Notes: a model not told the origin generated them from the sequence alone. Positions 1-25,158 are shown, counted from the stretch's first letter. The stretch is DNA of 64,000 nucleotides from Candidatus Hydrogenedentales bacterium (GCA_050950105.1 JBMNGZ010000008.1:121416-185415), one strand, 5' to 3'. Translations and numbers: made by a program.

Positions 1-1548
1 AGACCGTTATCTCGAGGGCTGGATCGACCTGACGCGCATGAGTACGGGCGATCAAAATGTGGATGTGCGCTCCGAACTCCTTCAGGAGAATGTCAGGTGT
101 CGGGCCGCTCGAACCGCTGAACCCGTGCTGCAGTTTAAGGTTATCCTGGACGGTGAAGGGTTAGGAAAGCCTGTCTCGCGCGAGTTCGCCTGGCGCCTTC
201 CGGCAATCCATCCCTACCGCGTCGCCGATGAACTCATCCAGTGGGCTGCCGATCGGCTCAAACAGGCCGGCAACTACTGCCTGCCTGTCTTTCATGTCCC
301 GTACTATGAAGAACTGATACTTGCCAAGGATGACGAGGAAACGCGTCGCGTGCTTCTGCACTGCATTCACGATGAAGCAGATGGCCTCAGCAATCTCTTC
401 AACGCGCGCGAACTCCCTGAAGCCGATCCGCTGCGGAGGGTCTCTCAAAAACTTGCGCTCGAATACGGCAGATTCATTCAGCTCGCACGCGCAGAGGGCA
501 TACACACGGCTCTGCTTGAAGCCTGGGATAACCTGAGAAAGGCCCACAGCGCGGCAACGGGCGCCTATCTCAGCTTGCCTTCTTCCGACGCCAGCGCTAT
601 GGCTCCGATGCTGTTTCGTTCATTTCTTTTGATCGACCGCCCCTCGCCCGCCGAGGCTGACCGCTGGATCTGGGAACCATTCGAGCCTTCCTGTGCGGTG
701 ACCATCTTGCATCCAGCCCTCCTGGAGATGCTTCAAGCCCAGATCGTTTACCTGCTCACGGCCTTCTCGACGGTCGCGTCCCAAGAACTTCGTTCTCCCG
801 GAACGCGATCTTTTTCCGACGAGCGTTGGCACGGCTATGTCGATCTGGCAACGATTCAGACGCCGTTGACAGGGCTCCTCAAGGATAACAATCGCATTCT
901 CGACACCGATGTGCGCGGAACCGGCCTGATTCATCGTATCGGGCACAGTGGACAAAAGGATGCCCCTCTGACGACGCGCCTGCTGCTTCGCTACGACGCC
1001 TTTGAAGACGAAGATGTTTCCGATGCGGAATTGTTTCGAAGCAGCCGGGAATCACAACTTATTTCGCGCATTCTGCATGATTATCGCGCACTCCACCCGC
1101 ACGCAGAGGATGGCCTCGCGATTGCTGTGTACCAGAATCAGGATATCCAGCCTCTTATCGCGGCCGTAGACAAGTTTCTGGAAAGTGTCTGCAAAGAACG
1201 CCCAGAGAACGCAAATCCGTATGCCATGTCCGTCACGGTCTTTACGGAATCAAGTGACGACAGCAGCGTCGCGCGCTGGGTTGGGCAGTGGAAGGAACGA
1301 TGGGAGGCCGCGGAGACCGAGAGCAGGCTGGCCCGTTATCGAAAAACGCAGCTTTCGGTCGCCCATCGGATTGTCTCGTCTGGTGAACACTATGGCCAGT
1401 TTGTCGAGCTTGTCGAAACGAGTCTCGATGTCGACATCGCCATACTGAACAGATTCATTCGCGCGGGGGCGCACGGCAATGAATTTGAGCCCGTCGAACC
1501 CTATGACGTTACCACGCGAACGCTGAAATTTCCGATCCTTGAGAAGTC
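1..1548 (+). pseudogene. 5' part (starts before the window) of a giant nuclease/HerA-type ATPase gene (DptH/DndH-like), interrupted by IS30
   Basis: Frame is open from position 2 through ...FPILEK. After 1548 the listed ORF 38..1984 reads into IS sequence. Removing the IS and one copy of the gtc repeat rejoins it in frame to SFCSLDAPG at 2777. Confidence 0.8.
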
Positions 1549-2773
1549 CGCGCATTCTAATACTAAGTGCACGGTTGCTAGGTTTAGCCCTTTCCCGTCG
1601 GAGCCGTCCGTCGCTCACGATGAGCGGCGGCGGACGGCGACAGAGGGAAGGGCGGCCTTTTTCCTGTTGGTGAGTCTTGAGCGAGGAGGTGGAAAAGAAG
1701 AAGACATCGGGACCCATTCGGTATTCTTGGAGATAGCAAACAACCAAGAGCGAAAGGAATCCCGATGTCCTACACCCATCTTACCCCAATGGAGCGCGCG
1801 AAGATCGAACTTTTTATCGCACAGGGATGGAGCTACACTGCGATTGCTTGCGAATTGGGCCGGCATCGCACAACGATTAGCCGTGAGTACCGGCGCAACA
1901 AGAGCGCCAGCGCGTACCGTGCAGAAACGGCTGAGGAACGGTACAAAGCGCGCAGGCAGGCTTGCCGACCCAAGGGCAGGCTGAATCATGAGCCGCTACG
2001 TGACTACGTGGAGGTCAAGATTGCCGTGGAAAAGACGAGTCCGGAGCTGGTGGCCGGGCGTCTGCGCATAGACTTCCCCGAGGACCCGCGGATGCGGGTG
2101 TGCCACGAGACCATCTACCAGGCGATCTACTCCAACCGGCACTACCTCGATTATCTCTGGGAATTTCTGACTCAGGCCCGCCCCAAACGGCGTAAACGGG
2201 GCCAGGGAAAGACCCGCAGAGGCCCTATAATCCCGAACCGGGTCAGCATCGCTGAACGCCCCGCTGCTGTCGAGCATCGCGTCGAAACCGGGCATTGGGA
2301 AGGCGACCTGATCGTCGGAAAAGGGCAGAACTCGTTTATCCTCACGCTCCTGGAGCGGGCCTCGCGTATCCTCCACGCCGTCAAGCTCACGACCAAGCGG
2401 GCGGCCGAAGTCTGCCACGCGGTGGTCGAAGCACTCCTGGACCGTCCAGCCTCCTGGATCAAAACCATTACCTTTGATAACGGCACCGAGTTTGCCGCGC
2501 ACAACATCATTACCGAGCAGCTCGGCGCCCGCATCTACTTCGCAGACCCTTATGCCGCCTACCAACGCGGAAGCAACGAGCAGGTCAACGGACTCATTCG
2601 ACGCTATCTGCCTAAGGGCACATGCTTTAAACAACTCCCCGAAGAAAAACTCCAGGAGATAGTCGATGAACTAAACAACCGACCAAAAAAATGCCTCGGA
2701 TACCGAACACCCAATGAAGTCTTCCTGCAAAAACGAAAAATCGCCTGGCGTGCACTTAGAACTTGAATGTGCC
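1549..2773 (+). mobile_element. IS30-family insertion sequence (~1225 bp)
   Basis: Imperfect terminal inverted repeats: left cgcgcattctaatactaagtgcacg, right (reverse complement) ggcacattcaagttctaagtgcacg. Flanked by 3-bp direct repeat gtc (1546-1548, 2774-2776). Encodes an IS30-type transposase. Confidence 0.9.
1765..2766 (+). CDS. IS30-family DDE transposase
   Basis: N-terminal HTH (YTHLTPMER...IACELGRHRTTISREYRRN), GHWEGDLIVG, TITFDNGTEF, QRGSNEQVNGLIRRYLPK, LNNRPKKCLGYRTP. Confidence 0.95.
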   Translation: MSYTHLTPMERAKIELFIAQGWSYTAIACELGRHRTTISREYRRNKSASAYRAETAEERYKARRQACRPKGRLNHEPLRDYVEVKIAVEKTSPELVAGRLRIDFPEDPRMRVCHETIYQAIYSNRHYLDYLWEFLTQARPKRRKRGQGKTRRGPIIPNRVSIAERPAAVEHRVETGHWEGDLIVGKGQNSFILTLLERASRILHAVKLTTKRAAEVCHAVVEALLDRPASWIKTITFDNGTEFAAHNIITEQLGARIYFADPYAAYQRGSNEQVNGLIRRYLPKGTCFKQLPEEKLQEIVDELNNRPKKCLGYRTPNEVFLQKRKIAWRALRT

Positions 2774-5261
2774 GTCTTTCTGTTCGCTTGATGCCCCGGG
2801 GAAAGGCCTGCAACGGGCCCGCGTGCTGAGCAATCGCCAATTCCGTATCTCGGCCAGCCATGCAGAGGTCATGGCGCGCTTAAAAAATAAAAGTACCCCG
2901 CGCGACGACCAGCACGTCGTCCTGGGCTTCGGAGATTATCAACCCTGGCAGGCGCTTGTTGACGCCCTGCATCACCGCGCTGAGTGGGTGGTCTGCATTG
3001 ATCCAAACGTCGATGCCCAGTTGATCGCCCAAAAGGCTGGCGCTACGCACGAGGCAAGGGAAATCATTGGCTTCGGTTCGGGGGTGGGCACACACGGCGA
3101 GGCAAACTTTACCATCTCAACAGAGCAGTTTCGCCTCTCGGATGTGCTGTATAAACTCACGGTATCCATCGAAGAACTCTGCAGCAGCTGGTCTTCCGCA
3201 CGGATCGCGGAGAGTGTTTTAGATGAATCCCGTCGTTTATCCGGCCTTTCTCTGGTCCGCGCAACAGGAATCGGCCAGTATATCCGCGATTTCATGGCCT
3301 ACGCTCTGACTCGTAAGCTCTTGAAAACAGACGAAGATGTTCTCTGCGATCAACTCGTGTCGCTGGATGCCTTTCACCATTGGTTCGACTCCGCCTATAG
3401 CGATGTCAGGCCTGATCTCCTTTGGCTCACGGCCACGGTCGGCGAATCAGGCCGGTTGCGCCTGGACCTGCGGCTGATCGAATGCAAACTCGCCAAAAGG
3501 GCGGATACCCACCTGGAAAAGGCAAGAGAGCAACTCGAAAGCGGACTGGAGCATCTCATTTCAGTGTTCATGCCGCGAACAGACGCCGGCATGGTCGAAG
3601 ATGAGCGGCCGGATCAGAGGTATTGGTGGCTACAGCTTCACCGCCTGATCGCGAGCAACTCGAAAATCCTGGGACGCGATCAAAAACGCGTGTTATCGGC
3701 CTTAGAGCGTCTTGCCGAAGGTGAATTCGATGTTTCCTGGCGGGCGGCCGCGGTCACTTTCTGGACAGACCAAAGCAAAGCGGATATTTCCCAGACAGAC
3801 TCGTGGCCGTTCTCGATTGAAGGCCTGAACATGAATATCGGCATTGTGTCCTGCGGGACTGAGTTTGTTCAGGCGCTGTGTGAAAAACAGGCAGACTCCA
3901 CGCTCCCATGGTCGGAGTCCTGTGTCCAGTTCCGAGCGACCGGCCGGTCTTCGCTAGACGAGCCCAATGACGATGCTGACGAGGCGCAGGACGGCGCTCC
4001 TGATGAGACGCCAAAAGGCGTTGTAAAACGTGATGCGTTGCCAGACATCGGCCCACCGCATTCTGAAGCGGAGGTCCATGCCACGAGATCGCTGACGAAG
4101 GAGACGCACCGCCCCCAAATCCCGGGTCGAATATTGCTCGGACAGTCGATATCCGGTTCACGCGACGTGTATTGGGAATTCGGGCACTCGGAACTCAACA
4201 ATCGCCACATGCTCATCTTCGGGACGTCCGGCATGGGAAAAACCTACACGATCCAATGCCTCCTCTTCGAGCTGGGCCGGGTGGGTCAAAATTCTCTAAT
4301 TGTGGACTATACAAATGGTTTCTTCGACAGCCAGCTGGAGTCCGTATTTCGAAGCAAGCTTCAGCCCATTCAGCATGTGATTAAAAAAGAGCCCTTGTCG
4401 ATTAACCCATTCCGCCAACAGATCGGGTTAGTCGTAGACGAGCCGCTTCCGGAGGCGGCATCCTCCACCGCGCAGCGAGTCAGCGGTGTCTTTTCCGAAG
4501 TCTATAGCTTCGGCGACCAACAAAAATCGGCCCTGTATCAAGCGATCAAAACGGGACTGGAACGTTCCGGCACTCGGGGTATGACGTTAGTGGATCTGCT
4601 GCCTTTGCTCGAAGAATTAGCCGAGGAAAAGGGCACGGTCGGACAGGCTGCGGGTAGTGTGGCCAGTAAAATTATACCCTTCGTAGATCAAAATCCCTTT
4701 GGCGAAGAAGACCCGGAGAGTTGGGAGAAGATTTTCACCGACATAACCAATCGATGCCACATTCTTCAACTCAGCGGTTTTGCAAAGGACTCTACGCGCC
4801 TGGTAACGGAATTCAGCCTCATCGACCTCTACTCGTTCTATCGCAGTCGCGGCACGCAGCATTCCCCGCGCGTGGTCGTTCTAGATGAAATTCAGAATCT
4901 GGACCATCGGGAGGAGAGCCCTCTTGCGCAACTATTGTGCGAAGGGCGCAAATTTGGGTTTTCATTGATCCTCGCCACGCAAATCATGAGCAGCTTGAAC
5001 AGAGACGAGCGCGATCGCTTATTCAACGCTGCGCACAAGCTCTTTTTCCGCCCGGCGGATACGGAAATCAAAACCTACGCTGAGATTGCTGCTGTCAGCA
5101 CGGGCGAGAAGGCCGATGTCTGGGTCAAACGTCTTGCCAAACTCAAGAAAGGACAATGCTATTCCATTGGACCGAGCCTGAATGAAGTCAGTGGCGAACT
5201 CGAAGTTAAGGCTTTCAGCATTCAAATCAGTCCGCTGAATAAGAGGATCATGAATGTCTAA
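2774..5261 (+). pseudogene. 3' part of the IS-split giant protein: PD-(D/E)xK nuclease-like motif plus C-terminal HerA/VirB4-like ATPase
   Basis: RPDLLW...LIECKL motif (~3405-3490), Walker A GTSGMGKT (~4221), Walker B VVVLDEIQ, GRKFGFSLILATQ. Confidence 0.8.
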
Positions 5262-6102
5262 CGCTTACCCGCATAGCCGGCTTCCCCGGAATTTCCATAA
5301 GACCTTCAAGCCAGAGCGGCAATATATTGGCGCCATGTTGAGATTTGCGGCGTCGGGGCAAGAAGGGGATTACCAGACAATATCGGAGATCACGGGAATC
5401 CCCACGGGAGCGTCCAGTGGCAAGGTCCCGGCTATTCTTGATTATTGCCGGGGTATGGGGCTTCTGACATTGGAAGGCGGAGCCCGCGGCGCCGTGAAGA
5501 AGCCGCAATTAACACCGTTTGGCCGCATGGTCCTCCTGGAAGACCCATTCTTGAAAGAAGCGATCACCCAGTGGATTGCTCATTTTAACCTGTGCAGCCC
5601 GAAAACCGGCGCCGATGTGTGGTATCAGGTGTTCTTTAAAGCCGCCAGGGCATTAGGAACCAGCTTCAAACGGGTAGACATAGAGCAGCAGCTCTCTCTG
5701 GTCTACGAAATTCAAGGTGGAAACCTCCTGGGACCGCTTATTGGTACGTATGAGGATGAAGCGGCTTTTGCTGAGTGCGGCGCGCTGAAGGAACGAAAAG
5801 GCCTCCTGGTGCGCGCAACAGCGCCCGTCCAAAGAGAGTTCGGCCTTGGTATCGGCGCCTGGATTCTGCAACTCATGCAAGACCATTTTCCAGGAAGCAC
5901 ACAAGTCACTCTTGTGGAACTGGATGAGGCAGCAGGATGGCGAACCATTCCCGGTTGGGACATGCCAACTCGTAATCGCTTACTCCAGATTCTTGAACAA
6001 AAAGCACTGGTTGATATTGACAGGCAGATGGAACCCTGGCTGCTCAGAGCAAAGATTTCTCCTCATGATGCGTGGGCACAGATTTACGACGATCTTATTT
6101 AG
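5254..6102 (+). CDS. DUF4007-family protein (SspB-like)
   Basis: FHKTFKPER, LTPFGRMVLLEDPFL and TQWIAHFNL resemble the DUF4007 signature. Overlaps the upstream stop. Confidence 0.7.
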   Translation: MSNAYPHSRLPRNFHKTFKPERQYIGAMLRFAASGQEGDYQTISEITGIPTGASSGKVPAILDYCRGMGLLTLEGGARGAVKKPQLTPFGRMVLLEDPFLKEAITQWIAHFNLCSPKTGADVWYQVFFKAARALGTSFKRVDIEQQLSLVYEIQGGNLLGPLIGTYEDEAAFAECGALKERKGLLVRATAPVQREFGLGIGAWILQLMQDHFPGSTQVTLVELDEAAGWRTIPGWDMPTRNRLLQILEQKALVDIDRQMEPWLLRAKISPHDAWAQIYDDLI

Positions 6103-6111
6103 AGGCATGAG

Positions 6112-9100
6112 ATGAAAAAACTGAATGACATTGTGCAGTTCCGTGGGGATCGCCTCTTTAACGGGGCAGTCAATATAGATTGGTTCTTGACAGACGACAA
6201 ACGAAGGCGCGACGCATCGGAGGCTTTCATCTTCCACGGGCCCGCCTACCACGGTGTTACCCAGGCTGATGTCGGCTCGTTGCACGGCCACCAGCTTCAA
6301 GATACAGCAAGCTTTGTCAACGCGATTGTGAAACGTTGCGCAGGGCTCGAAGAACAGCCATTTACCCTGGCTATCGCCGGCTACGGCACCGGCAAATCCC
6401 ATTTGGCTTTGACGCTCGCCACTCTTTTCAGAGATCCTTCTGACCCGGAAGCCGAAGGAATTCTCGCGCGGCTTTGCTCAGCAGATGCAACTATCGGTGG
6501 GGAAGTACGAACCCTTTTTCAAGAAAACAATGTTCCCTACCTTGTTGTCGCGTTGAACGGCATGCGCTCCTTCGACCTGGTTGCCGAGATGACTCAACAG
6601 ATTCTGGCCCAAGTCCAAATGCACCATTTGGACACCCGGCCACTGGATGATTTGCGGCCAAGGTTTAGTCAGGCCGCAAATTTAATCCGGATGTCAAATG
6701 CTGCCGTGGTCGAGGAGTTGGTTGAATCATCCGGGGCTCCCAGCGCCGAATCGTTGCTGCAGGCGCTCGACGAGCACGATGAAGAAGCTTACGCCGGGGT
6801 GCATGATTTTTTCGCCTCGAAAGGCATGCCTATCCGGGCACTGGGTGGCGAGTCCGTCAAGGAATTAATCGATGCCGTTGCGCAGGAATACTGCGGCCCG
6901 GGGAAGCCGTTTGGGAGACTTGTGGTTCTCTTCGATGAATTCGGACGCTTCACGGAGTTTGCCACGGTGCGAAGCCAGGTCGCAGGCAGCGGCGTGCTCC
7001 AAGATCTCTTCGAGGGTATTCAAAGCAACTCGGACAGTGCTGCTTTTGTCGGTTTTATTCAATTTGAACTCAATGCCTATGTCCAACGCGTCGCAAGTGA
7101 ATTTCGAAATGATATTCTGAGGTACGTTACGCGTTATCAAAGTGCGAGCAAAGCGTATCTGTCGGTAAATCTGGAGACCCTCATTGCACATCTCCTGCAA
7201 AAAAACGATCCGAAGCGGCTCGACCAATGGTTTGACACCAAAGCGCAGCTCACGGAATCCTCGAATTTACTGCACGACATAAATGAATGGTTTCCTCAGT
7301 CAAGAAGCTATCGGCTCTGGTCCACCGATGAGCAGTTCCATACGGTTATTCGAAAAGGCTGCTGGCCACTGTCTCCCATGGCCTTGTGGCTGCTTTTTTA
7401 CCTCACCATTGCCGGCAAGCATCTCCAGGAACGTTCGGTTCTGGCTTTGCTGGCCGAAGTCTTTGAGCACTATGGCAACAAAAAGATTCCATCGGATGGG
7501 GAGTGGCTTCTGCACCCTGTCGACCTCTGGTCTGATGCGTTGCAAGAAGAGCTCCTTAGCTCTGAGGAGACCGGCCAGCGGGGAACGATTACACACTCGT
7601 ATGCTGCGGTCGTGGCTCGACACGGCGCACGGCTGGATGCCGGGCACCTCCGCCTCCTTCGCGCGGTGGTGCTTTGTGGAAAGCTTGGCCTCTGCTCTGA
7701 ATCCAAAGAAGATGCCGTTGAAGCGCTGGCCCAATGCGTGGGCCAGCCAACCGGAACGGTAGCGGAACAAGTCGACCAACTCGACACTGAATACAACGTC
7801 ATCCACTGGGACGAAAGCTTCAAACTGTTTGATATTCTGGGCGACGCTGTACCGAGGACTCAATTCCTCGCGTTTCTCCGGCAACAGGTGGCAAGTAGTT
7901 TCGACGAGAACGCAAAAGCCTGCCTCTTCAGTTCGAAGGGACAAGATTGGTGCGAGTTACTAAAAGATCTGGATTGTGACTATGCGGAAAGCAACCAGAT
8001 ATCAACACGCGAATGGAAATATTCAGCGGTCACGTCGACGCTGGAGCAGCTCGAGACCCAGTTAAAGCTTGCACTCGAGCGATGGAGGAAGTCCGCACTC
8101 GCGGTCGATGTTCCGCGCGGCACTCTGATCTACTGCTATGTGGGACAGAGCAAAGAGGCCCAATCGGCCGAGGTCTACGCACAGAAACAACTCCGGAAAA
8201 TAGTGCGTGAAGCAAAAACCGCTTTTCCTGTCTTGGTCGTGCTTCTATGCGATGAAGAAGGGCTGCTAGGGCAGGCTATGGCCGAACTCACTGTCCTGGA
8301 GGATGAACTGACGGAGGAAGACAAGGCAAAGTTTGGCTCGCTTGTGGGGGCTCATATCGAAAAATTATCCGATAGTATAAGAACCCACGTTGAGGCCATG
8401 ATCCGGGCACGAAAATACCTTACTGCAACCAACAAAAAATTTGAAGCCGCGCGCCTGGTCCACTTTGGGAGCAAGCTCTTTGCCCACATATACAAGAGCC
8501 CACTTGCTTTTCCTTTCGATGGTTTCACGACAACGCGTGGCAATGCTGCAGATACATGCCAGCAGCTGACCTCGGAATTGATTGCTGGGAAGCTGGATTA
8601 TGAATCCGTGATGGCGAAGCAAAAGAAAAGCAAGAATCGCGCTGTCGCTGTCCTTAAAGACTGCTGGGGGATCTTTAATCGGAGCGGCGCGGTGTTGAAA
8701 AAGCCGAACAATCGTGTTCTACGCTCCCTTTCAGGAAATTGGGATGCCCAGCTCCAATCACAGCAAAACCTCTCTATTGGGGCTCTCTTGAGCGAGTTGT
8801 GTTCGCCTCCCTATGGAGCCAACCTTGCATCAGCAGGGCTGGCCCTTGGAGTCTTCATTGCAGCGCGTGCTGAGACGCTGGTCGTAGTGCGTGGCGGTGA
8901 ACAAATAGCCCTCTCGCAGTGGGTCCAGGATGGCGCCTTTAAGGGCAAATTCATCGATGTCGAGAATGCTCACCAAGTGGAGCTGGCCCAGCTTGGCAAG
9001 GCTTCATCGGAATGGGAGAACCTCATTGAAGAATGGGAACAAGCCGAGAGCCACCACGCCCGATCAATGTGTCTTGAACGGGCACACGATCTGCAAGAAC

Positions 9101-10392
9101 GTATCCCAGTTCCACCAACCTTAAGAAGTCATGTCGAACTTCTGACCGAGCAAGCCGAAGAATCCTTGAAGGCCTTGGTGGCATTCGCGCAGGAAGAGGA
9201 CGATGCGCACAATCAAATTAAGCGTGGTGAAGAAAGGAAAAACGTGCGCCTTCTCAGCTCTGGTGGCGCTAACCTGCTCAGACTGTTGCGTACAGCGGAA
9301 GGCGAAGGGCCGCGCTGGACCCAGGATGAAATCGAGAGCCTGCAGCGCGGAATTGAGCGTTCGCGCCTGTTGATCGCCCAGAACTTTCAGGAGTGGCTGG
9401 AGCGTCAGGCTCCAAAGAATGATAACCCGGAAACCGTTGGTGATTTTAAACATAGAATGAATCGAGTGATCGGGGGAAATCTCCAGGAACTTGGATTTCA
9501 ACAGGAATTTGAAGCGCTTTCTATACGTGTAGCCGGCTTACTCAAAAACGTCGAAACGGCTGCCGAGGCGCAGCAGCTACTGCGAGATGTCCAGTCATGG
9601 ATCGACCAACAGGGCGATCCATGTCGCATCGTGCGCATAGCCCGTTTGCGCGATCTTCACAAGGTAGGAAGGGAATATCAAGCCAAGCTTCAGGGCATGT
9701 CGCGACGAATTCAACTAACGGAAATCAGTGAACGCCGCAGCACATTGTCAGAGTTTCTAAAAGAACTGAAGTCGACGCAAGAAGAGATGGTGCGCCGGGC
9801 TTCAACGCTGCACAAAGCGAAACTGCGCCCCGACAAAAACATCGATGAATTGATCCAGGAAGTAGAGCAACTCATCACGATATTCGAAGGATGCGACACA
9901 GATCTCGAAGACCTGCGCTTGATGCAGCAGGCGCTCAGATTCTATGAGAAAACCTACAATCAACTGGGTGACCAGCGCTTGACGTGGAAAGAGTTCGAAG
10001 CCCTTAAAAAGACGCTCCGTAAGGAAGCAGAAAAAACAGTCGTTGATGAAGGAATTCCCTGGGATCTTACAGAGACCTTCGCCTGCATGGATGAACAATT
10101 GACTAAAGAGCGAAAGGCCAAAAGTCTCGACTGGGTGCAGGAACGTGAAGCAGATGCGGCCGCGGTAGGTTCCATGTCAGCGGAAGAGGCCAACCAGCTT
10201 CATAACAAGATCACCGCGCCGCCCGCCTGCATTACAAAAGAACATGCCAAAAGAGTCGACAAGGTAAAACAAAAAGTCGAAGCTCGACTCAACACGCTGA
10301 CCGTCGATTGGCTTTTAGAAAAATTCAAAGAGTTGCCCCAAAAAGCCCGAAAAGACTTCCTCAAAAAAATTGACACTCTCGAAAAAGCCTAG
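6112..10392 (+). CDS. Large P-loop ATPase (SspC/BrxC-like) with long helical C-terminus
   Basis: Walker A GYGTGKSH, Walker B VVLFDEFG, CWPLSP and SPPYGA motifs. 1426 aa, directly after the DUF4007 gene. Confidence 0.7.
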   Translation: MKKLNDIVQFRGDRLFNGAVNIDWFLTDDKRRRDASEAFIFHGPAYHGVTQADVGSLHGHQLQDTASFVNAIVKRCAGLEEQPFTLAIAGYGTGKSHLALTLATLFRDPSDPEAEGILARLCSADATIGGEVRTLFQENNVPYLVVALNGMRSFDLVAEMTQQILAQVQMHHLDTRPLDDLRPRFSQAANLIRMSNAAVVEELVESSGAPSAESLLQALDEHDEEAYAGVHDFFASKGMPIRALGGESVKELIDAVAQEYCGPGKPFGRLVVLFDEFGRFTEFATVRSQVAGSGVLQDLFEGIQSNSDSAAFVGFIQFELNAYVQRVASEFRNDILRYVTRYQSASKAYLSVNLETLIAHLLQKNDPKRLDQWFDTKAQLTESSNLLHDINEWFPQSRSYRLWSTDEQFHTVIRKGCWPLSPMALWLLFYLTIAGKHLQERSVLALLAEVFEHYGNKKIPSDGEWLLHPVDLWSDALQEELLSSEETGQRGTITHSYAAVVARHGARLDAGHLRLLRAVVLCGKLGLCSESKEDAVEALAQCVGQPTGTVAEQVDQLDTEYNVIHWDESFKLFDILGDAVPRTQFLAFLRQQVASSFDENAKACLFSSKGQDWCELLKDLDCDYAESNQISTREWKYSAVTSTLEQLETQLKLALERWRKSALAVDVPRGTLIYCYVGQSKEAQSAEVYAQKQLRKIVREAKTAFPVLVVLLCDEEGLLGQAMAELTVLEDELTEEDKAKFGSLVGAHIEKLSDSIRTHVEAMIRARKYLTATNKKFEAARLVHFGSKLFAHIYKSPLAFPFDGFTTTRGNAADTCQQLTSELIAGKLDYESVMAKQKKSKNRAVAVLKDCWGIFNRSGAVLKKPNNRVLRSLSGNWDAQLQSQQNLSIGALLSELCSPPYGANLASAGLALGVFIAARAETLVVVRGGEQIALSQWVQDGAFKGKFIDVENAHQVELAQLGKASSEWENLIEEWEQAESHHARSMCLERAHDLQERIPVPPTLRSHVELLTEQAEESLKALVAFAQEEDDAHNQIKRGEERKNVRLLSSGGANLLRLLRTAEGEGPRWTQDEIESLQRGIERSRLLIAQNFQEWLERQAPKNDNPETVGDFKHRMNRVIGGNLQELGFQQEFEALSIRVAGLLKNVETAAEAQQLLRDVQSWIDQQGDPCRIVRIARLRDLHKVGREYQAKLQGMSRRIQLTEISERRSTLSEFLKELKSTQEEMVRRASTLHKAKLRPDKNIDELIQEVEQLITIFEGCDTDLEDLRLMQQALRFYEKTYNQLGDQRLTWKEFEALKKTLRKEAEKTVVDEGIPWDLTETFACMDEQLTKERKAKSLDWVQEREADAAAVGSMSAEEANQLHNKITAPPACITKEHAKRVDKVKQKVEARLNTLTVDWLLEKFKELPQKARKDFLKKIDTLEKA

Positions 10393-10619
10393 GGTGGGAA
10401 CGGTCTAAATTCATTTATTGATCGCCTTTTCTGACGTATCCGGCGCCGCGTTCTTCGTACACCCAGTGTCGCGCTCGGCCTGTAGGCGCCCGTGTCTCAG
10501 CGGCTTATGTGGTGCCGGGCGCAGGAGTGCGAGAGATCGAGATCGGCGATTGGGCAGCGACGGTGCCAGCGGCGGCTCGTGCGCAGGGAGAGTCTGGGCT
10601 GGCGCGGCGTTGGGGCGGG

Positions 10620-10716
10620 GTTACGGAAAAGAAAAAGGACCTAGGCGGGTTCGCGTAAGTCCTTGAGGTGCCGGGAGCTGGAGGGGGGATCGAGCCCCCG
10701 ACCTCATCATTACGAG
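10620..10716 (-). repeat. att-like direct repeat containing the 3' half of tRNA-Thr (10673-10716); copy of 36358-36455
   Basis: ~97 bp with about 4 differences from 36358-36455. Identity stops just past the anticodon loop (…cattacgag). Confidence 0.9.
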
Positions 10717-10717
10717 G

Positions 10718-11979
10718 GTCAAAACTGATTACTTCGAGCCGCTCTGTCTTTGGACCTGCTGCGCATTGCCTTCAGGCTCGCGCAAGAGCGCAGTCTTGGC
10801 ACAAGCCATGGCGCCTCTGAACGCTTGGGAGAAGGCTGAACGCGAAAGACTTGAACCAATCATCCAAGAGCGGGAGTCAGAGAGAAAAACGATTATATCC
10901 AGGATCGACGGCCTCCGAAAACAGGCGGCCAAGCCTGGATGCAAGAATCTGGAAGATATTACGAAAGAAATCACGGACCTTGAAGCGCGCCTCCCAACGA
11001 TCCCGATTTTCCCGCGATTATGGACAAGCGATATCACTCCCGAGTACCTGGGAACACCCATGGACCTGAACCAGGAGCGCATGGCTGTGCTCTGTGACGA
11101 AGCTGGTGTCCTCGAGATTATCAACGGCAGGTATTCCAAGAAGGGGCCCAACCTCGACCTCTTCCTCCAGGGACATGCCTCCACTGCAGTTCGTGTGGAC
11201 CGTGGCTCACGGCCCTCCGTTATGCTGAAAAGGCCTGTTCTCTCCGTTGTGCTGACACCGCAACCCGATGTTATCAGGTCGCTCACGGACAGCCCCGAGT
11301 TTCGCGGGCGCGTTTTTTGTACACCATGCCGGAACATAATCTGGGCGCCCGCACAGGTGATGGACTACCAGTGTCACCGCAGGTTCTCCAGGGCTACAAC
11401 TCGGTTGTGAACGCCCTGTTGAAGCGAAAAGGGGAGAATGACGAGGATGGCTCTGAGAAGGCCCATGTCCTTAAGCTGGCGTCAGACGCATACGACCTGT
11501 GGAAAGAATTCTGGTCAGAAATCGAGACCAAATTGGCGGACGGCGGTATGCTCGAGCACCTTCGTGACTGGGGCGGAAAACTGCCGGGCGCCGTCGCGCG
11601 CATTGCGGCTATCTTCCACGTGACCCGCCATGCTTTTGAAAACGAACGCAATTACCACATCTCCGCGGAGGATATGGGTGCGGCAATTAGACTGGGACAT
11701 GTATTCTTGAAACATGCCCTGATCGCCTTCGACGCGATGGGCGCTGACCGGGCGCGACATGACAGAACTGACAGAACTCCGCGGGTGTCCCGTCGGCTCG
11801 TGGGTTTTGTCAGTTTTGTCATGGTGAGGCGGGCGAGAGCGATCGCGGAGAGCGTCCAGGCAATTGGGCCACTTCCAGTCCTCGAGTGCACATCCGCCTC
11901 CCCGCGCAAGGGGGCAGCTTGTATACAGGGCCGAAGCGCCGTGCTTTGGTGTCAGATAGAAGCCATTTGCAGCCAATGA
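10718..11979 (+). pseudogene. DUF3987/YfjI-like replication protein, 5'-truncated and frameshifted
   Basis: EPLCLWT..LPSGSRKSAV, SDITPE, DEAG, GRYSK, VDRGSR, LTPQP in one frame. It continues as FLYTMP...WGGKLPGAVARIAA in another frame (shift near 11310). No start codon after the att site. Confidence 0.75.
11758..11823. repeat. Inverted pair of tandem 9-mers (iteron/origin-like)
   Basis: catgacagaactgacagaac (11758-11777) and gttttgtcagttttgtcatg (11804-11823) are 18/20 reverse complements. Confidence 0.6.
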
Positions 11980-12755: not shown

Positions 12756-13212
12756 ACACAACCTTCTTTTTTTGCAGGCATTTGCACCGAGGTCAGCTCT
12801 GGCTGGGCGACTGGTCCATCTTCTACATTGATTCTGCATTTTTCATCGGCGATCACTGCGCGCAGAGTTTTCAACTCCGAACACCATACTATATACGTGC
12901 AGCCATTTTTGTCGATGGGAGGGCTACGAGGATGTTCTAGCGTGAGTTTCGGTGCTTTTATGTAATTGACAGTCATGTCATTAAACGCACTATTGATCTC
13001 ACATGGCGAGATGTTCTATGGTGGAGTCACTGCGATGCGGGGGACCGCTGAGACCCCTGACAATCCCGGCAACGTCGGTTCGTGGCGCGAATGCTTCGGT
13101 CTGGTTTCACACAGCAGGTCCGTCGGCGCGGGAGAGGACCAGGGACTTGCCGAGCGACCCAGGCGGGCTCGAGTATTCTTCCCTTTGCCGCCTCGGAATA
13201 GTGAGGGGTTCC

Positions 13213-14733
13213 ATGGCCACGAAGCGTAGCGAGACCAACAGTGTGACCAACCTGGACATCGGGCCACTGTCCAACCACCTCTGGGAAGCCGCAAATATCC
13301 TCCGCGGTCCGGTAGATGCCGCCGACTTCAAGACCTACATCTTCCCGCTCCTCTTCTTCAAACGCATCTCCGATGCCTACGATGACGAAGTTGCCGCTGC
13401 CTTGGAAGAATCTGGCGGTGATCCTGAGTTCGCTCAGTTCCCGGAGAACCACCGCTTTCAAATCCCTGCGGACTGCCACTGGACAGACATACGCGCCAAG
13501 AGCGCAAACATCGGCCATGCGCTCCAGAAAGCGATGCGCGGAATCGAGCAGGCCAACCCGGACACCCTGCACGGCATCTTCGGCGATGCCCAGTGGACCA
13601 ACAAGGACCGCCTTTCGGACGCGCTGCTCAAGGACTTGATCGAGCATTTCTCGTCGCTCAACCTGGGCAATGAACACTGCAAGGCAGACATTCTCGGCCA
13701 GGCCTATGAATATCTGATCAAAAAATTTGCCGACCTGACTAACAAGAAGGCCGGAGAATTTTATACCCCGCGTTCCGTGGTTGCGCTGATGGTTCGTATC
13801 CTTGCGCCCGAGGCCGGAGAAACCATCTACGACCCGGCCTGCGGGACCGGCGGTATGCTCCTCGAGGCACTGCATCATGTCAAAGAGCATGGCGGCGACG
13901 AAAACCTCATGCTGGGCAAGCTCTACGGCCAGGAAAAGAACCTGACCACATCCTCCATCGCCCGGATGAACCTCTTTCTCCACGGCGCGGAGGACTTCCA
14001 TATCGAACGTGGCGATACCCTGCGCGCGCCCGCCTTTTATTCGGGCGATAGCCTCGCCACCTTTGACTGCGTCATCGCCAATCCTCCGTTCTCCCTGGAA
14101 AAGTGGGGAGACGACGCCTGGATCAACGATGCTTACGGCCGTAACTTCGCGGGCCTGCCCCCCGCCAAATCCGGCGACTTCGCCTGGGTCCAGCACATGA
14201 TCAAGTCTATGGCCCGCAAAACCGGCCGCATGGCCGTGGTGCTTCCCCATGGCGTCTTGTTCCGCATGTCCAAGGAAGGCGAGATCCGGCGCAAGCTGCT
14301 GGAGATGGACATCCTCGAAGCGGTGATCGGTCTCGGCCAGAACATCTTTTACGGTACCGGTCTCGCGCCCTGCGTGCTGGTCTTCCGCGACAGCAAGCCC
14401 AAAGCCCACCGCCATAAGGTGCTGTTCATCGACGCCTCAAAGGAGTTCAAGACCGGCCGCGCCCAGAACGAACTCCTGCCGGAACACGTCGACAACATTC
14501 ATCGCTGGTACGCGGACTACAAAGACGTCGAGGGCGTCTCCCGTGTGGTCTCCCTCGACGAAATTCGCGAGAACGAGTTCAATTTGAACATCCCCCGCTA
14601 CGTGGAACCGGTGATCGAGGAAGAAACCATCACGCTCGAGGAGGCTGTCGATAACCTGAAGAAATCCCTGGAGGCGGCGTATGCCGCGGAGGATCGGCTG
14701 AAGGAACTGCTGCATCGAGAGGGTCTGCTCTAA
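13213..14733 (+). CDS. hsdM: Type I R-M methyltransferase subunit 1 (NPPF)
   Basis: LWEAANILRG, GEFYTPRSVV, IYDPACGTGGML, VIANPPF. ATG at 13213 with gagggg RBS. Confidence 0.95.
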   Translation: MATKRSETNSVTNLDIGPLSNHLWEAANILRGPVDAADFKTYIFPLLFFKRISDAYDDEVAAALEESGGDPEFAQFPENHRFQIPADCHWTDIRAKSANIGHALQKAMRGIEQANPDTLHGIFGDAQWTNKDRLSDALLKDLIEHFSSLNLGNEHCKADILGQAYEYLIKKFADLTNKKAGEFYTPRSVVALMVRILAPEAGETIYDPACGTGGMLLEALHHVKEHGGDENLMLGKLYGQEKNLTTSSIARMNLFLHGAEDFHIERGDTLRAPAFYSGDSLATFDCVIANPPFSLEKWGDDAWINDAYGRNFAGLPPAKSGDFAWVQHMIKSMARKTGRMAVVLPHGVLFRMSKEGEIRRKLLEMDILEAVIGLGQNIFYGTGLAPCVLVFRDSKPKAHRHKVLFIDASKEFKTGRAQNELLPEHVDNIHRWYADYKDVEGVSRVVSLDEIRENEFNLNIPRYVEPVIEEETITLEEAVDNLKKSLEAAYAAEDRLKELLHREGLL

Positions 14734-14957
14734 TGCGTCCGCAGATTACGCAGATGAACGCAGCTTGTTCAAAAGGAGATGAACTGACCTGCGCCATTAT
14801 TGGCGCGGCCAAGGCGGTTCATTCCGAGCTGGGCAATGGATTCAAAGCCCTGCTGATCAATTTCGGGACCAGAAGCCTTCGACATGAGAGGCTCGTCCTC
14901 AATCTGCGAGAATCCGCGTCATCTGCGGATAATTCTTTTGCAGGGGGCACGCCATGA
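14733..14957 (+). pseudogene. Internally deleted GxxExxY-family protein remnant
   Basis: Family-like N-terminus ELTCAIIGAAKAVHSELGNGF joined directly to C-terminus LLINFGTRSLRHERLVL. The central ExxY region is missing. Confidence 0.65.
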
Positions 14958-16492
14958 TCTCTCAATCCCAGCTTGAATCCTACCTCTGGGGCGCGGCCAC
15001 CTTGCTGCGCGGCTACATCGACGCCGGGGATTACAAACAGTTCATCTTCCCGCTGCTGTTCTACAAGCGCCTGTGCGACGTCTATGACGAGGAGCTGGCC
15101 GATGCGTTGGAGGAGTCCGGCGGCGATCAGAAATATGCGGCCCTTCCCGAACAGCACCGCTTCCAGATCCCGGAAGACGCCCATTGGAAGATCACTCGCA
15201 CCAGGGTCAAGAACGTGGGCAAGGCCATCCAGGAGGCTCTGCGCGCTATCGAAACTGCCAACCCCGATACTCTGTACGGGGTTTTCGGCGATGCTCCGTG
15301 GACCAATAAGGACCGCCTGCCGGACCGTATGCTGCGCGAGCTGATCGAACATTTCAGCTCGCAGACGCTTTCGCTCTCAAACTGCCCCGAGGATGAGCTG
15401 GGCGTAGGCTACGAGTTTCTGATCAAAAAGTTTGCCGACGATTCCGGCCACACTGCTGCGGAGTTCTATACTAACCGCACCGTGGTACATCTGATGACCG
15501 AGATGCTCGCACCCAAACCGGGCGAGTCGATCTATGACCCCACCTGCGGGTCGGCGGGCATGCTGCTCTCCGCCGTCGCTCACCTGAAGCGGCAGAACAA
15601 AGAATGGCGGAATCTGCGACTGTTCGGCCAGGAACGCAACCTGCTCACCTCGGCCATCGGCCGGATGAACCTGTTCCTGCACGGCATCGAGGATTTCCGC
15701 ATCGTCCGGGGGGATACCCTGGCCAACCCCGCCTTTGTTCAAGGCGACCGGCTCATGCAATTCGACGTAGTCCTGGCCAATCCGCCGTACTCCATCAAAC
15801 AGTGGGACCGCGACGCCTGGTCCGCTGATCCCTGGGGCCGCAACCTTTACGGCACCCCGCCCCAGGGCCGCGCCGACTATGCCTTCTGGCAACACATCAT
15901 CAAGAGCATGAAAGCCAGGAGTGGGCGCTGTGCCATCCTGTTTCCACATGGCGTCCTCTTCCGCAACGAAGAGTCGGCCATGCGCGAGAAACTGGTGGCC
16001 CACGACGTGGTGGAGTGCGTGTTGGGCCTTGGCCCCAACCTCTTTTACAACTCGCCGATGGAAGCCTGCGTCGTCATCTGCCGGATGAGTAAGCCCAGGG
16101 AGCGCAGGAACAAGGTGCTCTTCATCAACGCGGTGAACGAGGTAACCCGCGAACGGGCGCAGAGCTTCCTCACTGACGACCACATCCAGCGCATGGTCGC
16201 CGCCTACCAGGCTTTCGGTGATGAAGACGGCTTTGCCCGGGTGGTCAGCAATGAAGAGATCCGGGAAAAGGCCAACAATCTCAGCATCCCGCTCTACGTG
16301 CGTGCGCCAACTCTGGTAACGAATGGAGTGGCCGAAGAACAGGCCCGCTACGGAAAAACCACCCTCGCGCAGGCCATTGCTGACTGGCAGCAAAGCTCCA
16401 GGGAATTGCGGGAATCGATGGGCGGCCTTTTCGAGATGCTTGAGCAACAGACAGATCCGTTCGGTGATGCCGGGAAAATGATTAAGCACTAA
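14954..16492 (+). CDS. hsdM: Type I R-M methyltransferase subunit 2 (NPPY)
   Basis: LWGAATLLRG, AEFYTNRTVV, IYDPTCGSAGML, VLANPPY. Confidence 0.95.
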   Translation: MISQSQLESYLWGAATLLRGYIDAGDYKQFIFPLLFYKRLCDVYDEELADALEESGGDQKYAALPEQHRFQIPEDAHWKITRTRVKNVGKAIQEALRAIETANPDTLYGVFGDAPWTNKDRLPDRMLRELIEHFSSQTLSLSNCPEDELGVGYEFLIKKFADDSGHTAAEFYTNRTVVHLMTEMLAPKPGESIYDPTCGSAGMLLSAVAHLKRQNKEWRNLRLFGQERNLLTSAIGRMNLFLHGIEDFRIVRGDTLANPAFVQGDRLMQFDVVLANPPYSIKQWDRDAWSADPWGRNLYGTPPQGRADYAFWQHIIKSMKARSGRCAILFPHGVLFRNEESAMREKLVAHDVVECVLGLGPNLFYNSPMEACVVICRMSKPRERRNKVLFINAVNEVTRERAQSFLTDDHIQRMVAAYQAFGDEDGFARVVSNEEIREKANNLSIPLYVRAPTLVTNGVAEEQARYGKTTLAQAIADWQQSSRELRESMGGLFEMLEQQTDPFGDAGKMIKH

Positions 16493-16563
16493 GTTCCTGA
16501 CGCCGGAAAATTGATCGTGGCCTCTGGCGGAAAAGGGTCTCGAACGCGAAAACGGAGCAGAGA

Positions 16564-17598
16564 ATGAGCGAACTGACTGAAAACAATCACGGCCGGGACT
16601 ACGCACACCTTCTCGCCGAGGTGAAAGAGCGCGTTCGTTCGGCCCAGTACACCGCGCTGAAAGCAGTCAATACCGAACTGGTCGGGTTGTATTGGGATAT
16701 CGGGCGGATGATCGTGGAACGACAGACAGACGCCGAGCATGGCACAGCCATCGCCGAACAGTTGTCCAATGACCTGCGGACGGAGTTTCCAGGAATCAGC
16801 GGTTTTTCCAGGCGCAATGTGTTCTACATGCGGGAGTTTTACCTGCTTTACTGCGATGACAAGCGAGTGCAACCACTGGTTGCACAAATCGGATGGACTC
16901 ATAATCTGGTGATATTCCAACGCTGCAAAGACCCCATGGAACGTGAATTCTACATCCGCATGACCCGCAAGTTCGGCTGGTCCAAGAACGTGCTCATTCA
17001 CCAGATCGACAACCAGAGTTATGAAAAATCCCTGCTCGGCCAGACCAATTTCGACCAGGCGCTCACACCGGAACTTCGCGCCCAGGCCAGGCTGGCGGTG
17101 AAGGATGAATACACCTTCGGTTTTCTGGAATTGGATGAGGAGCACAGCGAACGGGAGCTGGAACGGGCGCTCATTGCCCGGATCGAGGATTTTCTGCGGG
17201 CCATGGGCGGCATGTTCGCCTTTATGGGAAGCCAGTACCGGCTGGAGATCGATGGCAAAGAGTTTTTTGTCGACCTCTTGCTGTTTCATCGGCGCCTGCG
17301 CTGCCTTGTCGCCATTGAATTGAAAGTCGGCGAATTCCTGCCGGAGTTCGTCGGCAAGATGCAGTTTTACCTGACCGCGCTGGACCGGCAGCTTCGTCAG
17401 GAAGACGAAAACTCTTCCATCGGCATCATTCTATGCAAAGAAAAAAGCCGCACCATTGTCGAGTACGCCCTGCATAACAGCCGCAAGCCCATTGGTGTGG
17501 CAACGTATAAAATTACCCGCACACTGCCCAGGGAGCTAAAAGGACAACTCCCCCGGCCGGAAGAGATTGCAGCCTTGCTGCAGGAGATTGAAGAATGA
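16564..17598 (+). CDS. YhcG/DUF1016 PD-(D/E)xK nuclease-family protein
   Basis: VNTELVGLYWDIG, GFSRRNVFYMREFY, KDEYTFGFL, DLLLFHRRLRCLVAIELK, GKMQFYL, IGIILCK. Confidence 0.9.
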   Translation: MSELTENNHGRDYAHLLAEVKERVRSAQYTALKAVNTELVGLYWDIGRMIVERQTDAEHGTAIAEQLSNDLRTEFPGISGFSRRNVFYMREFYLLYCDDKRVQPLVAQIGWTHNLVIFQRCKDPMEREFYIRMTRKFGWSKNVLIHQIDNQSYEKSLLGQTNFDQALTPELRAQARLAVKDEYTFGFLELDEEHSERELERALIARIEDFLRAMGGMFAFMGSQYRLEIDGKEFFVDLLLFHRRLRCLVAIELKVGEFLPEFVGKMQFYLTALDRQLRQEDENSSIGIILCKEKSRTIVEYALHNSRKPIGVATYKITRTLPRELKGQLPRPEEIAALLQEIEE

Positions 17599-18803: not shown

Positions 18804-18912
18804 TGAAGAAAACACGGTCGAGCGGATGGTTCTCGACACGCTCTGCGGCGGCGTGACTTCGAATAGGGTTGCCGAAAAGCTCGCCAGCGATCGCGCGCGA
18901 CGAGAACAATGA
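18796..18912 (+). pseudogene. Duplicate 5' stub of hsdR (38 aa)
   Basis: MFNEENTVERMVLDTL versus the HsdR start YFNEENTIEQLVLDTL. Overlaps the hsdS stop. Confidence 0.7.
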
Positions 18913-18927
18913 TCGGGAGCGCCCCAA

Positions 18928-20073: not shown

Positions 20074-20172
20074 AATATCTTGTTGTGCATTTGGGGGCTT
20101 AAAACACAATAAGAATCCGTTTGTTCTCTTTTTTGTATCACAACGCATCACCGTCGGCTAAATTTGCGGGAG

Positions 20173-24838: not shown

Positions 24839-24887
24839 GTTCACCTCGGGTCTGATTCGGGAACTCCCCCCCGACCTTCTCATCATC

Positions 24888-24921
24888 CAACCTTGGTTGA
24901 GGAATTTCAACCCGGGTTGAA
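24888..24921. promoter_or_regulatory. Two palindromic CAACC-N2-GGTTG sites, candidate upstream activator sequences
   Basis: caaccttggttg (24888-24899) and perfect palindrome ttcaacccgggttgaa (24906-24921). Centres are 20 bp apart. Confidence 0.65.
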
Positions 24922-24973
24922 GCCAGGATTTGCCCGTTTCCACAAAGAGCCATTCCGGGAGGCACTTTTCGCG

Positions 24974-24990
24974 TTGGCATGCGGCTTGCT
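24974..24990 (+). promoter_or_regulatory. Sigma-54 (-24/-12) promoter facing cas10
   Basis: TTGGCATGCGGCTTGCT matches YTGGCACG-N4-TTGCW at all but one specified position. GG-N10-GC spacing is exact. Confidence 0.8.
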
Positions 24991-25158
24991 GAACCTCTGT
25001 TGCATAACTACAATGGGCATGGATGCCGCGCATGGTATACGCAGCGATGGTCGCAGCTAGCAGACATCATCCATGCAGGCCCTGGCGGGGGGCTTTATCC
25101 GATTGCTCAACAGGCCTTTCTCGATCAGCAGGGTCGCAAGTGACATACGGAGGGTTGT

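Follow-up and report, generated by a model that had tools for sequence, protein, structure and literature searches.

A candidate phosphorothioate-reading restriction arm with its own diverged SspB/SspC-like gene pair in a Candidatus Hydrogenedentales bacterium

The first 10,392 nucleotides of a 64,000-nucleotide stretch of DNA from a Candidatus Hydrogenedentales bacterium (GCA_050950105.1, genome G000; contig JBMNGZ010000008.1, here C8, positions 121416 to 185415; the whole stretch is called the window) contain the 3' end of a phosphorothioate (PT)-type defense operon. Three plus-strand genes lie there: a giant nuclease-ATPase gene (H) interrupted by an insertion sequence (IS), and two genes, B2 and C2, whose products are diverged relatives of the PT-writing proteins SspB and SspC. 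A further 20 kb upstream of the window was also fetched and, because canonical ssp genes are co-oriented directly upstream, the trio can be placed as genes 7 to 9 of a nine-gene operon of same-strand overlapping genes, sspB-sspC-sspD-sspA-F-G-H-B2-C2 (G000:C8:107610-131807). With moderate confidence, F-G-H-B2-C2 is read here as a five-protein restriction arm that would sense PT beside an SspBCD(A) writer, with C2 and B2 as its putative loading and scanning unit, a reading drawn from gene content and from analogy to characterized systems. A second, diverged SspB/SspC-like pair at the 3' end of an FGH cassette is the unusual remainder of this locus, and the original prediction, made from the window sequence alone, had half seen it.

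Operon organization and the interrupted H gene

The four genes at the 5' end of the operon are predicted to encode an ordinary single-strand PT writer. Their products match models for SspB (PADLOC, 5.6e-90; Pfam DUF4007, 5.9e-85), SspC (PADLOC, E value of 0), SspD (PADLOC, 3.6e-113; PAPS_reduct, 9.7e-14), and SspA (9.2e-133), a class-V aminotransferase; the canonical SspC of the operon has no Pfam or NCBIfam match. Neighboring genes overlap by 4 nt (sspB/sspC), 23 nt (sspC/sspD), 11 nt (sspA/F and F/G), 4 nt (G/H), and 8 nt (H/B2), with gaps of 15 nt between sspD and sspA and 9 nt between B2 and C2. F (1524 aa) and G (546 aa) sit between sspA and H. The domain order in F is a sulfur-binding domain (SBD), a NERD nuclease domain, two protein-kinase domains (PglW/MAD6-like), and a P-loop core that is SspF-like at residues 938 to 1237. 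Since an SspF-like gene (PADLOC SspF, 3.5e-22) and an SspG-like gene (PADLOC SspG, 1.7e-17) precede H, the effector is assigned to the SspFGH type.

H begins at G000:C8:120193, 1222 nt ahead of window position 1, and its reconstructed product is about 1750 aa long, about 1340 aa of it encoded inside the window. Over window positions 1 to 10392, the plus strand holds a 5'-open frame at 2 to 1984 followed by frames at 2763 to 5261, 5254 to 6102, and 6112 to 10392. The middle part of H, 5' of the IS, spans positions 1 to 1544 (its frame is open from the window edge, and the in-frame piece is 2 to 1544), and the C-terminal part spans 2778 to 5261, both on the plus strand. Residues 16 to 939 of the N-terminal piece align with residues 1 to 924 of H from an intact orthologous locus, L008 (68% identity), and residues 6 to 829 of the C-terminal piece align with residues 924 to 1748 of the same protein (70% identity). 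This end-to-end alignment of both pieces indicates that the insertion was clean and that H is otherwise undamaged.

Motifs and the orthologue alignment mark the C-terminal part of H as a PD-(D/E)xK nuclease (RPDL at 3408 to 3419 and ECK at 3480 to 3488) joined to a HerA/FtsK-type ATPase (Walker A GTSGMGKT at 4221 to 4244 and Walker B VVVLDE at 4872 to 4889). The nuclease D, E, and K residues and both Walker motifs are invariant across 25 orthologues. This piece matches Pfam DUF87 (8.5e-11), PADLOC DndH (9.6e-60), and PADLOC SspH (2.1e-22), and the N-terminal piece has a weak PADLOC SspH match. A PD-(D/E)xK restriction endonuclease (REase) followed by a C-terminal HerA/FtsK ATPase, in a protein of the 1700-aa class, is the arrangement of a DndH-type large subunit.

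The element that splits H lies at about 1545 to 2777 on the plus strand, is 1.23 kb long, and belongs to the IS30 family. It is bounded by 30-nt inverted repeats (1544 to 1573 and 2749 to 2778) and contains a transposase frame of 333 aa at 1765 to 2766 (Pfam HTH_38, 1.6e-13; rve, 5.3e-11); both ends were inspected, and no clear target-site duplication was seen there. Seven other full-length copies with 98.8 to 100% identity are present on contigs C1, C3, C5, and C9 of G000, from which the element appears to have expanded recently in this genome and to be active now or to have been so until recently. Many partial copies occur in G000 too. The other eight operon genes are full length, and H alone is split. 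H being cut in two, restriction in G000 is probably off, and judged from the state of the genes the restriction arm is most likely dead in this strain, with the writer and B2/C2 intact. That loss of H could relieve autoimmunity is speculation. A promoter and terminator scan of window positions 5000 to 11000 gave nothing above shuffled expectation.

Much of what the original prediction had said about individual genes agrees with these results. It described three tightly coupled genes, which the 8-nt H/B2 overlap and the 9-nt gap before C2 bear out, and it recognized the PD..ExK and HerA motifs of a giant whose 5' end falls outside the window, gave the in-window length found here, and implied the IS that splits it. 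Its DUF4007-like second gene and its 1426-aa ATPase are the B2 and C2 described below. It also reported no PAPS-reductase or desulfurase gene in the window, which is true, though both lie 8 to 10 kb ahead of window position 1; the upstream region in which it proposed to look for SspD, a desulfurase, and F/G-like genes does hold sspD, sspA, an SspF-like gene, and an SspG-like gene. The prediction had staked itself on sulfur-transfer genes occurring at homologous loci, and 48 of the 50 genomes with the cassette that were searched have an SspD match (E<=1e-89).

Identity and distribution of B2 and C2

B2 (5254 to 6102, plus strand; 282 aa) is identified by Pfam and hhalign as a diverged SspB paralogue, a candidate DUF4007/BrxA-like DNA-binding protein. 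Its Pfam DUF4007 (PF13182) match exceeds the cut-off (4.2e-8; 33.1 bits versus 27) and is confined to residues 82 to 149, or 68 of 288 model positions, and seven PADLOC SspB models match weakly. In profile-to-profile alignment with SspB, hhalign returned a probability of 94.4% (E value of 8.7e-8 over 215 columns), and the consensus lines show that B2 keeps the HxTF, GK, and DPFL motifs common to SspB.

C2 (6112 to 10392, plus strand; 1426 aa) is predicted to be a BrxC/SspC-like AAA+ ATPase of the ORC/Cdc6 clade. Walker A (GYGTGKS) is encoded at 6379 to 6399, Walker B (VVLFDEFG) at 6922 to 6945, and a PPYG motif at 8806 to 8817; the Walker A K95 and the Walker B D275/E276 are invariant in the family. 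C2 has no PADLOC or NCBIfam match, and its sole Pfam match, LinB-like_C, is below threshold (E value of 0.0099; 16.1 bits versus 27). The AAA+ region with Walker A and B motifs thus fits the BrxC/PglY/SspC fold (DUF6079, ORC/Cdc6 clade), with scores that stay under curated thresholds. Alignment of C2 with SspC families by hhalign reached a probability of 96.3% (E value of 1.8e-9 over 740 columns), placing C2 residues 59 to 933 on SspC residues 42 to 853, and BLASTP of C2 against the operon SspC and of B2 against the operon SspB gave weak collinear patches. The C2 orthologue of L008 is matched by five PADLOC SspC models and no BrxC model. ESM Atlas neighbors of C2 fall in DUF6079/BrxC/PglY clusters, which is a lead only.

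Structure prediction divides C2 into two parts. The AlphaFold model of residues 1 to 960 (pLDDT 87.2) has Acinetobacter BrxC structures 9zll, 9zdx, and 9zn5 as its best Foldseek matches (9zll_D, E value of 5.7e-9; TM-score on target of 0.55 to 0.59), followed by ORC/Cdc6 proteins, and the modeled fold of C2 is BrxC-like. The model of residues 891 to 1426 (pLDDT 88.3) has a winged-helix-like start and then long helices, is all-alpha, and has no Foldseek match in the PDB at E<=1e-3; a sequence-profile search of the PDB with full-length C2 returned chance coiled-coil matches alone (E value of 0.4). Because this part aligns to SspC just at the PPYG motif (47 columns) and has no PDB match, the helical C-terminus of about 470 aa appears, from alignment and model, to be specific to the C2 family.

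Within loci of this kind, the two pairs separate cleanly. FastTree placed 40 C2 sequences and 23 SspC sequences in separate clades, and 40 B2 and 21 SspB sequences likewise, each with support of 1.0 (the C2/SspC tree leaves out the truncated C2 sequences of L030 and L072). Homology by hhalign combined with these splits indicates that B2 and C2 diverged long ago from SspB and SspC as paralogues and are not the writer itself. The original prediction had cast the in-window DUF4007-like and ATPase genes as the SspB/SspC marking core of a novel Dnd-type hybrid, a model to which the weak DUF4007/SspB matches of B2 and the P-loop motifs of C2 lend themselves. Against it stand the clade separation and the complete canonical SspB/C/D/A set, matched with very strong scores, that the operon carries upstream, and we now consider it very improbable. 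The broader claim of a PT-type defense locus holds for the DndH-like effector and for the kinship of the pair to SspB/SspC; the marking core itself is the upstream sspBCDA. Nor is Ssp marking coupled to a Dnd-like effector an undescribed pairing, since SspABCD-SspFGH is already published (PMC8092258).

Homologues of C2 are widespread among proteins with little annotation. Among 8000 candidates scored, 666 matched at E<=1e-3; the 120 matches listed are 1372 to 1441 aa long, none has a precomputed Pfam domain, and their given names are hypothetical, conserved hypothetical, or uncharacterized, with the exception of P0088, a "tetratricopeptide (TPR) repeat protein." An exhaustive profile search of 1.84 billion representatives gave 1248 matches at E<=1e-3 and 468 representative clusters at E<=1e-30. 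When the single C2 sequence was used as a query for related loci, none was found; an alignment-based query succeeded, and a one-genome-per-species scan with the C2 alignment recovered 130 relatives. From these, 79 loci with up to 10 kb of flanking sequence were kept, giving 80 with G000. They come from Desulfobacterota, Planctomycetota, Verrucomicrobiota, Acidobacteriota, Cloacimonadota, Bacillota, Chloroflexota, Bacteroidota, and other phyla. Syntrophorhabdus aromaticivorans UI (L060) and Desulfopila sp. IMCC35008 (L068) are cultured carriers.

Gene order across these loci is nearly fixed. Synteny was counted from clustered open reading frame calls, with misses rechecked by hmmsearch on six-frame translations, which recovered 6/6 B2 genes and 7/8 G genes (six in place and one on the opposite strand, in L029). 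B2 is directly 5' of C2 in 76/76 loci with at least 900 nt of upstream sequence, and H is 5' of B2 in 73/73 loci with at least 1.5 kb. Of the 59 loci that reach 8 kb or more upstream, 57 have G in place; the exceptions are L029, which is rearranged, and L043, in which G is displaced and hmmsearch of six-frame translations gave no G match. F is present in 53/57 loci with at least 9.5 kb. An independent profile search anchored on H found this H clade in 5 of 401 genomes of one phylum: C2 was adjacent in three, a fourth had a fragmented locus with part of C2 on another contig, and in the fifth a frameshifted B2 was followed by the contig end.

This arrangement also bears on whether B2-C2 might be a self-contained add-on riding with the operon, such as an autoimmunity brake or a BREX-like exclusion unit. 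BrxC-like ATPases are reported to anchor several different defense systems (PMC12839542), and sspBCD operons have been noted near brxCZL genes in 40 genomes, 7 of the 40 cyanobacterial (PMC12914056). An independent unit is nevertheless hard to reconcile with the 8-nt overlap of H and B2, with the finding that B2-C2 never occurs without H upstream where sequence is available (73/73), with the lack of any conserved gene 3' of C2 across the 80 loci, and with the absence of a PglZ match from the whole G000 genome (92% complete). We regard an add-on as unlikely.

C2 was found in none of 40 relatives of G000 (7 sharing its genus, 17 its family, and 16 its order), which indicates that the operon was horizontally acquired. 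A tblastn search of C2 against plasmids gave two weak partial matches with no informative context. When the PADLOC SspH model was run against 401 genomes from the class of G002, no full-length SspH was among the matches listed; the model matched the FtsK domain of cellular FtsK in 384/400 genomes.

Damage was seen at several orthologous loci. An insertion of about 5.9 kb lies inside B2 of L043, and the cassette of L029 is rearranged as noted above. Genome G369 (L102/L103) has a fragmented sspC, a remnant of sspD, and a frameshifted B2. SspC is also fragmented in L090, and L091 has a short SspC fragment and an inserted open reading frame between sspB and a full-length sspC. From these decayed operons, the system seems often to be inactivated.

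Module membership, sulfur sensing, and a proposed mechanism

Upstream regions fetched for 20 loci tie the cassette to sulfur marking. In all 20, sspB-sspC-sspD is directly 5' of F and there is a single SspD per locus; sspA is present in 12, and F has the long NERD-kinase form in 9 and a short form in 11. Ssp-like genes were instead seen 3' of C2 in L011 and L014 (convergent) and in L074 (co-directional), where an SspC-like gene product of 1115 to 1209 aa has neighbors of about 305 and about 400 aa.

Module membership was assessed as Spearman's rho between pairwise-identity matrices for the same 17 to 21 genomes. Values were 0.94 for G with H, 0.88 for B2 with C2, and 0.77 to 0.80 for B2/C2 with G/H. 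Among SspB, SspC, and SspD they were 0.78 to 0.88, and between B2/C2 and SspB/C/D only 0.25 to 0.46. Because the matrices correlate within the sets and weakly between them, the data indicate that SspB, SspC, and SspD make up one evolutionary module and G, H, B2, and C2 another, the two having been reshuffled against each other, and they suggest swapping between writer and restriction arm. The SspB of G000 is 73% identical to that of L082 versus 37% to that of L088, and its H is 66 to 68% identical to both partners.

These values bear on the idea that B2-C2 is a second target-recognition or scanning pair for the writer, serving a second motif or the other strand with the same SspD and SspA. B2 and C2 are homologous to SspB and SspC, which are demonstrated only in PT synthesis (PMC12914056, PMC8092258); the ATPase motifs of C2 and the SspB motifs of B2 are kept, and each locus has one SspD that two pairs could share. 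The pair nonetheless co-varies with G/H far more than with SspD, is always 3' of H and never beside sspD in 80 loci, and includes the helical domain of C2, for which SspC has no counterpart; the apparent reshuffling of the writer and restriction modules relative to each other points the same way. A second writer pair is accordingly held to be improbable, and assignment of B2-C2 to the restriction arm is preferred.

The putative sensor of this arm is the SBD at the N-terminus of F (G000:C8:113992-114560, equivalent to L001:12577-13146; same strand as the operon). Residues 12 to 141 of F have a faint NCBIfam match, far under the cut-off, to a "phosphorothioated DNA-binding restriction endonuclease" model (9.2e-4). 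When the first 190 or so residues were aligned from 18 loci, the resulting profile of about 150 aa matched SBDHga (PDB 8H0L) with an E value of 3e-35 over profile positions 4 to 154. The F sequence of G000 alone matched 8H0L at 6.4e-4, with PHK and YPFSH aligned to PHK and LPYYH. The sulfur cavity of SBDHga is formed by H25, K26, L75, P76, and H79 (PMC10602919), and these positions correspond to H30, K31, Y83, P84, and H87 in F of G000, within conserved KPHK and (Y/x)PFxH motifs. The domain is present at the start of F in 18 of the 20 upstream regions.

Part of this architecture has been described. A clade that combines an SBD, an unknown domain, and a kinase makes up 3% of SBD homologues, with its role unknown (PMC10602919). 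The SBD has been equated with a winged helix-turn-helix (wHTH) domain (PMC10853773), and the order wHTH, NERD, inactive and active kinases, DndF core is known for a subset of DndF proteins (PMC10853773; also PMC12839542). Such a fusion is thus half known, and in the literature searched it was not found tied to PT sensing by an SspFGH-type cassette. The match to PADLOC SspF models starts at the P-loop core of F, with model position 1 on residue 938 here and on residue 174 in a short-form orthologue, which suggests that the SBD is an addition to canonical SspF.

In BREX, one BrxC serves both modification and restriction. In the proposed system the B/C scanning pair would have been duplicated and the labor split, with one copy for the writer and one for the restriction arm. 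SspBCD(A) would write PT on host DNA. C2, as an ORC/Cdc6-type AAA+ protein like BrxC, and B2, as a multi-winged-helix protein of BrxA/SspB type, would together form an ATP-controlled unit that loads onto and scans DNA for the restriction arm, by analogy with BrxC. The SBD of F would read PT as "self" and restrain H, and PT-free foreign DNA would be nicked or cut and translocated by H.

Published work on related systems is consistent with several of these steps. The AAA+ domain of BrxC binds DNA and a BrxB:PglZ effector subcomplex in an ATP-dependent manner, and BrxC assemblies differentially affect methylation and restriction (PMC13326643). Canonical SspFGH damages or restricts non-PT DNA (PMC8092258); since published relatives of the cassette cut such DNA, we infer that the SBD probably conveys a "self" signal. 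Duplication of a scanning pair has a precedent in Dnd/Pbe, where DndD-DndE was duplicated to CxC-DndE, or PbeC/PbeD (PMC10853773). A more specific proposal, that the cassette is a distinct five-subunit restriction machine in which C2 and B2 load and gate the DndH-like nuclease-translocase while F recognizes PT as "self" through its SBD, is offered tentatively, as somewhat less probable than its negation.

Several points weigh against assigning B2-C2 to a restriction arm. The physical tie of B2/C2 to F, G, or H is one that we infer from the genes, and complex prediction for C2 residues 930 to 1426 with H residues 1 to 500 (score of 0.00 versus a mark of 0.32) speaks neither for nor against binding. 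A writer-side role is a natural alternative because published roles of SspB and SspC are confined to PT writing. Three Vibrio genes, SspFGH, together with SspBCD/IscS defend Escherichia coli (PMC8092258), so an effector of this kind does not generally require a B2/C2-like pair. The genomes compared for co-variation are related and hence not independent data points, and the co-variation could simply come from B2/C2 being more tightly linked, physically, to G/H than to sspBCD. F, G, and H match the PADLOC SspF/G/H models weakly and in part (E values of 1e-17 to 1e-26), on intact orthologues as well, and in L088 and L099, two of the 20 loci whose upstream DNA was fetched, F starts without an SBD. 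In the literature searched, a B2-C2-like pair 3' of FGH is unreported; the supplementary tables of PMC10853773, which were not covered, may list such a neighborhood.

How PT systems discriminate self from nonself is an open problem: just a fraction of sites is modified, and no reader is known for SspFGH or DndFGH, as stated in PMC12914056 and PMC8092258. The variant, which is widespread, offers two handles on it, namely, a recognizable PT-reader domain fused to F and a BrxC/BrxA-like pair dedicated to the restriction arm. Two conserved components would escape current catalogues, as PADLOC and Pfam give no significant match to C2. If the writer and the restriction arm are each served by a separate scanning pair, the locus would be a natural separation-of-function system for BrxC/SspC-class ATPases. 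The dual role of BrxC/SspC in modification and restriction would then be split between two paralogues in nature, and the switch between marking and killing by BrxC-type ATPases could be approached gene by gene.

Genomic surroundings and comparison with known systems

The operon is located in a typical defense island. Just 3' of C2, a DUF3987 gene lies in two overlapping plus-strand frames, 10766 to 11410 (Pfam, 4.7e-40; model positions 43 to 221) and 11317 to 11979 (2.6e-29; model positions 229 to 363), and is probably a frameshifted mobile-element remnant at the operon border. A type I restriction-modification cluster follows on the plus strand (13003 to 23157), with two tandem hsdM genes (13003 to 14733 and 14954 to 16492), a YhcG/DUF1016 PD-(D/E)xK nuclease gene (16564 to 17595), hsdS (17595 to 18800), a Fic/DOC gene (18928 to 20070), and hsdR (20164 to 23157). 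Beyond it are a minus-strand gene for a sigma-54 activator with an RtcR-like N-terminus (23279 to 25030) and a type III-A CRISPR csm operon comprising Cas10 (25159 to 27603), Csm2, and RAMP proteins up to position 31007.

The closest known system is SspABCD-SspFGH from Vibrio anguillarum FF-93 (Wang et al. 2021, PMC8092258), in which sspB-C-D and sspA (IscS) likewise stand beside co-oriented F (P-loop), G, and H (FtsK/HerA-like C-terminus) genes. Three genes make up the published cassette and are enough in E. coli, whereas five invariably linked genes, F-G-H-B2-C2, are found here; the rule of exactly three genes does not extend to these loci, where B2 and C2 come after H (76/76 and 73/73). The HerA part of H also scores better with the DndH model (9.6e-60). 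The pairing of Ssp with FGH is therefore already known from that system, and the addition of B2-C2 to the FGH cassette, found in no paper searched, appears to be new.

DndFGH/DptFGH share with this cassette an H subunit with an REase and a HerA/FtsK C-terminus, and the G subunit of DndFGH is a triple-wHTH protein related to SspB (Rakesh, Aravind & Krishnan 2024, PMC10853773). Here, however, the writer is Ssp rather than DndABCDE, and DndFGH is treated in that paper as a three-gene stand-alone unit. No operon gene matches DndD or DndE, and the Dnd writer matches are just DndA on SspA and a weak DndC (8e-4) on SspD; the locus is therefore not Dnd. The text of PMC10853773, as far as it was drawn on, does not mention a BrxC/SspC-like ATPase plus an SspB-like gene fixed 3' of DndH. 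It does describe Orc/CDC6 ATPases and SspB-like wHTH proteins in non-DndFGH "HerA/FtsK capture" neighborhoods.

In the use made of PT, the cassette differs from PT-dependent type IV nucleases (SBDHga, ScoMcrA, and SprMcrA; PMC10602919). The SBD directs cutting of PT-DNA in those enzymes, whereas in F it is part of a cassette whose published relatives cut non-PT DNA. In organization the nearest parallel is PbeABCD, or the CxC-ABC-ATPase-DndE genes beside DndCDEA, where the scanning pair of a writer (an ATPase and its DNA-binding partner) was also duplicated, the second, paralogous pair being linked to nuclease/motor genes beside a PT writer (PMC10853773). The parts are different: an ABC ATPase, an RHH-type DndE, and an HKD-helicase there, and an ORC/Cdc6-type AAA+ protein, a DUF4007 protein, and a DndH-like FGH set here.

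BREX resembles the locus through BrxA and BrxC, given the modeled BrxC-like fold of the first 960 residues of C2 and the description of DUF4007 as BrxA-like. From BREX, including type 4, the locus is set apart by its DndH-like effector and by two BrxC-like ATPases per locus instead of one. The operon genes scanned gave no matches to PglZ, BrxL, BrxB, or BrxP, and the lack of a PglZ match in the genome (92% complete) means that the locus is not BREX. If the proposal of a five-subunit machine is true, the cassette would be a mechanistic bridge between BREX and Dnd/Ssp.

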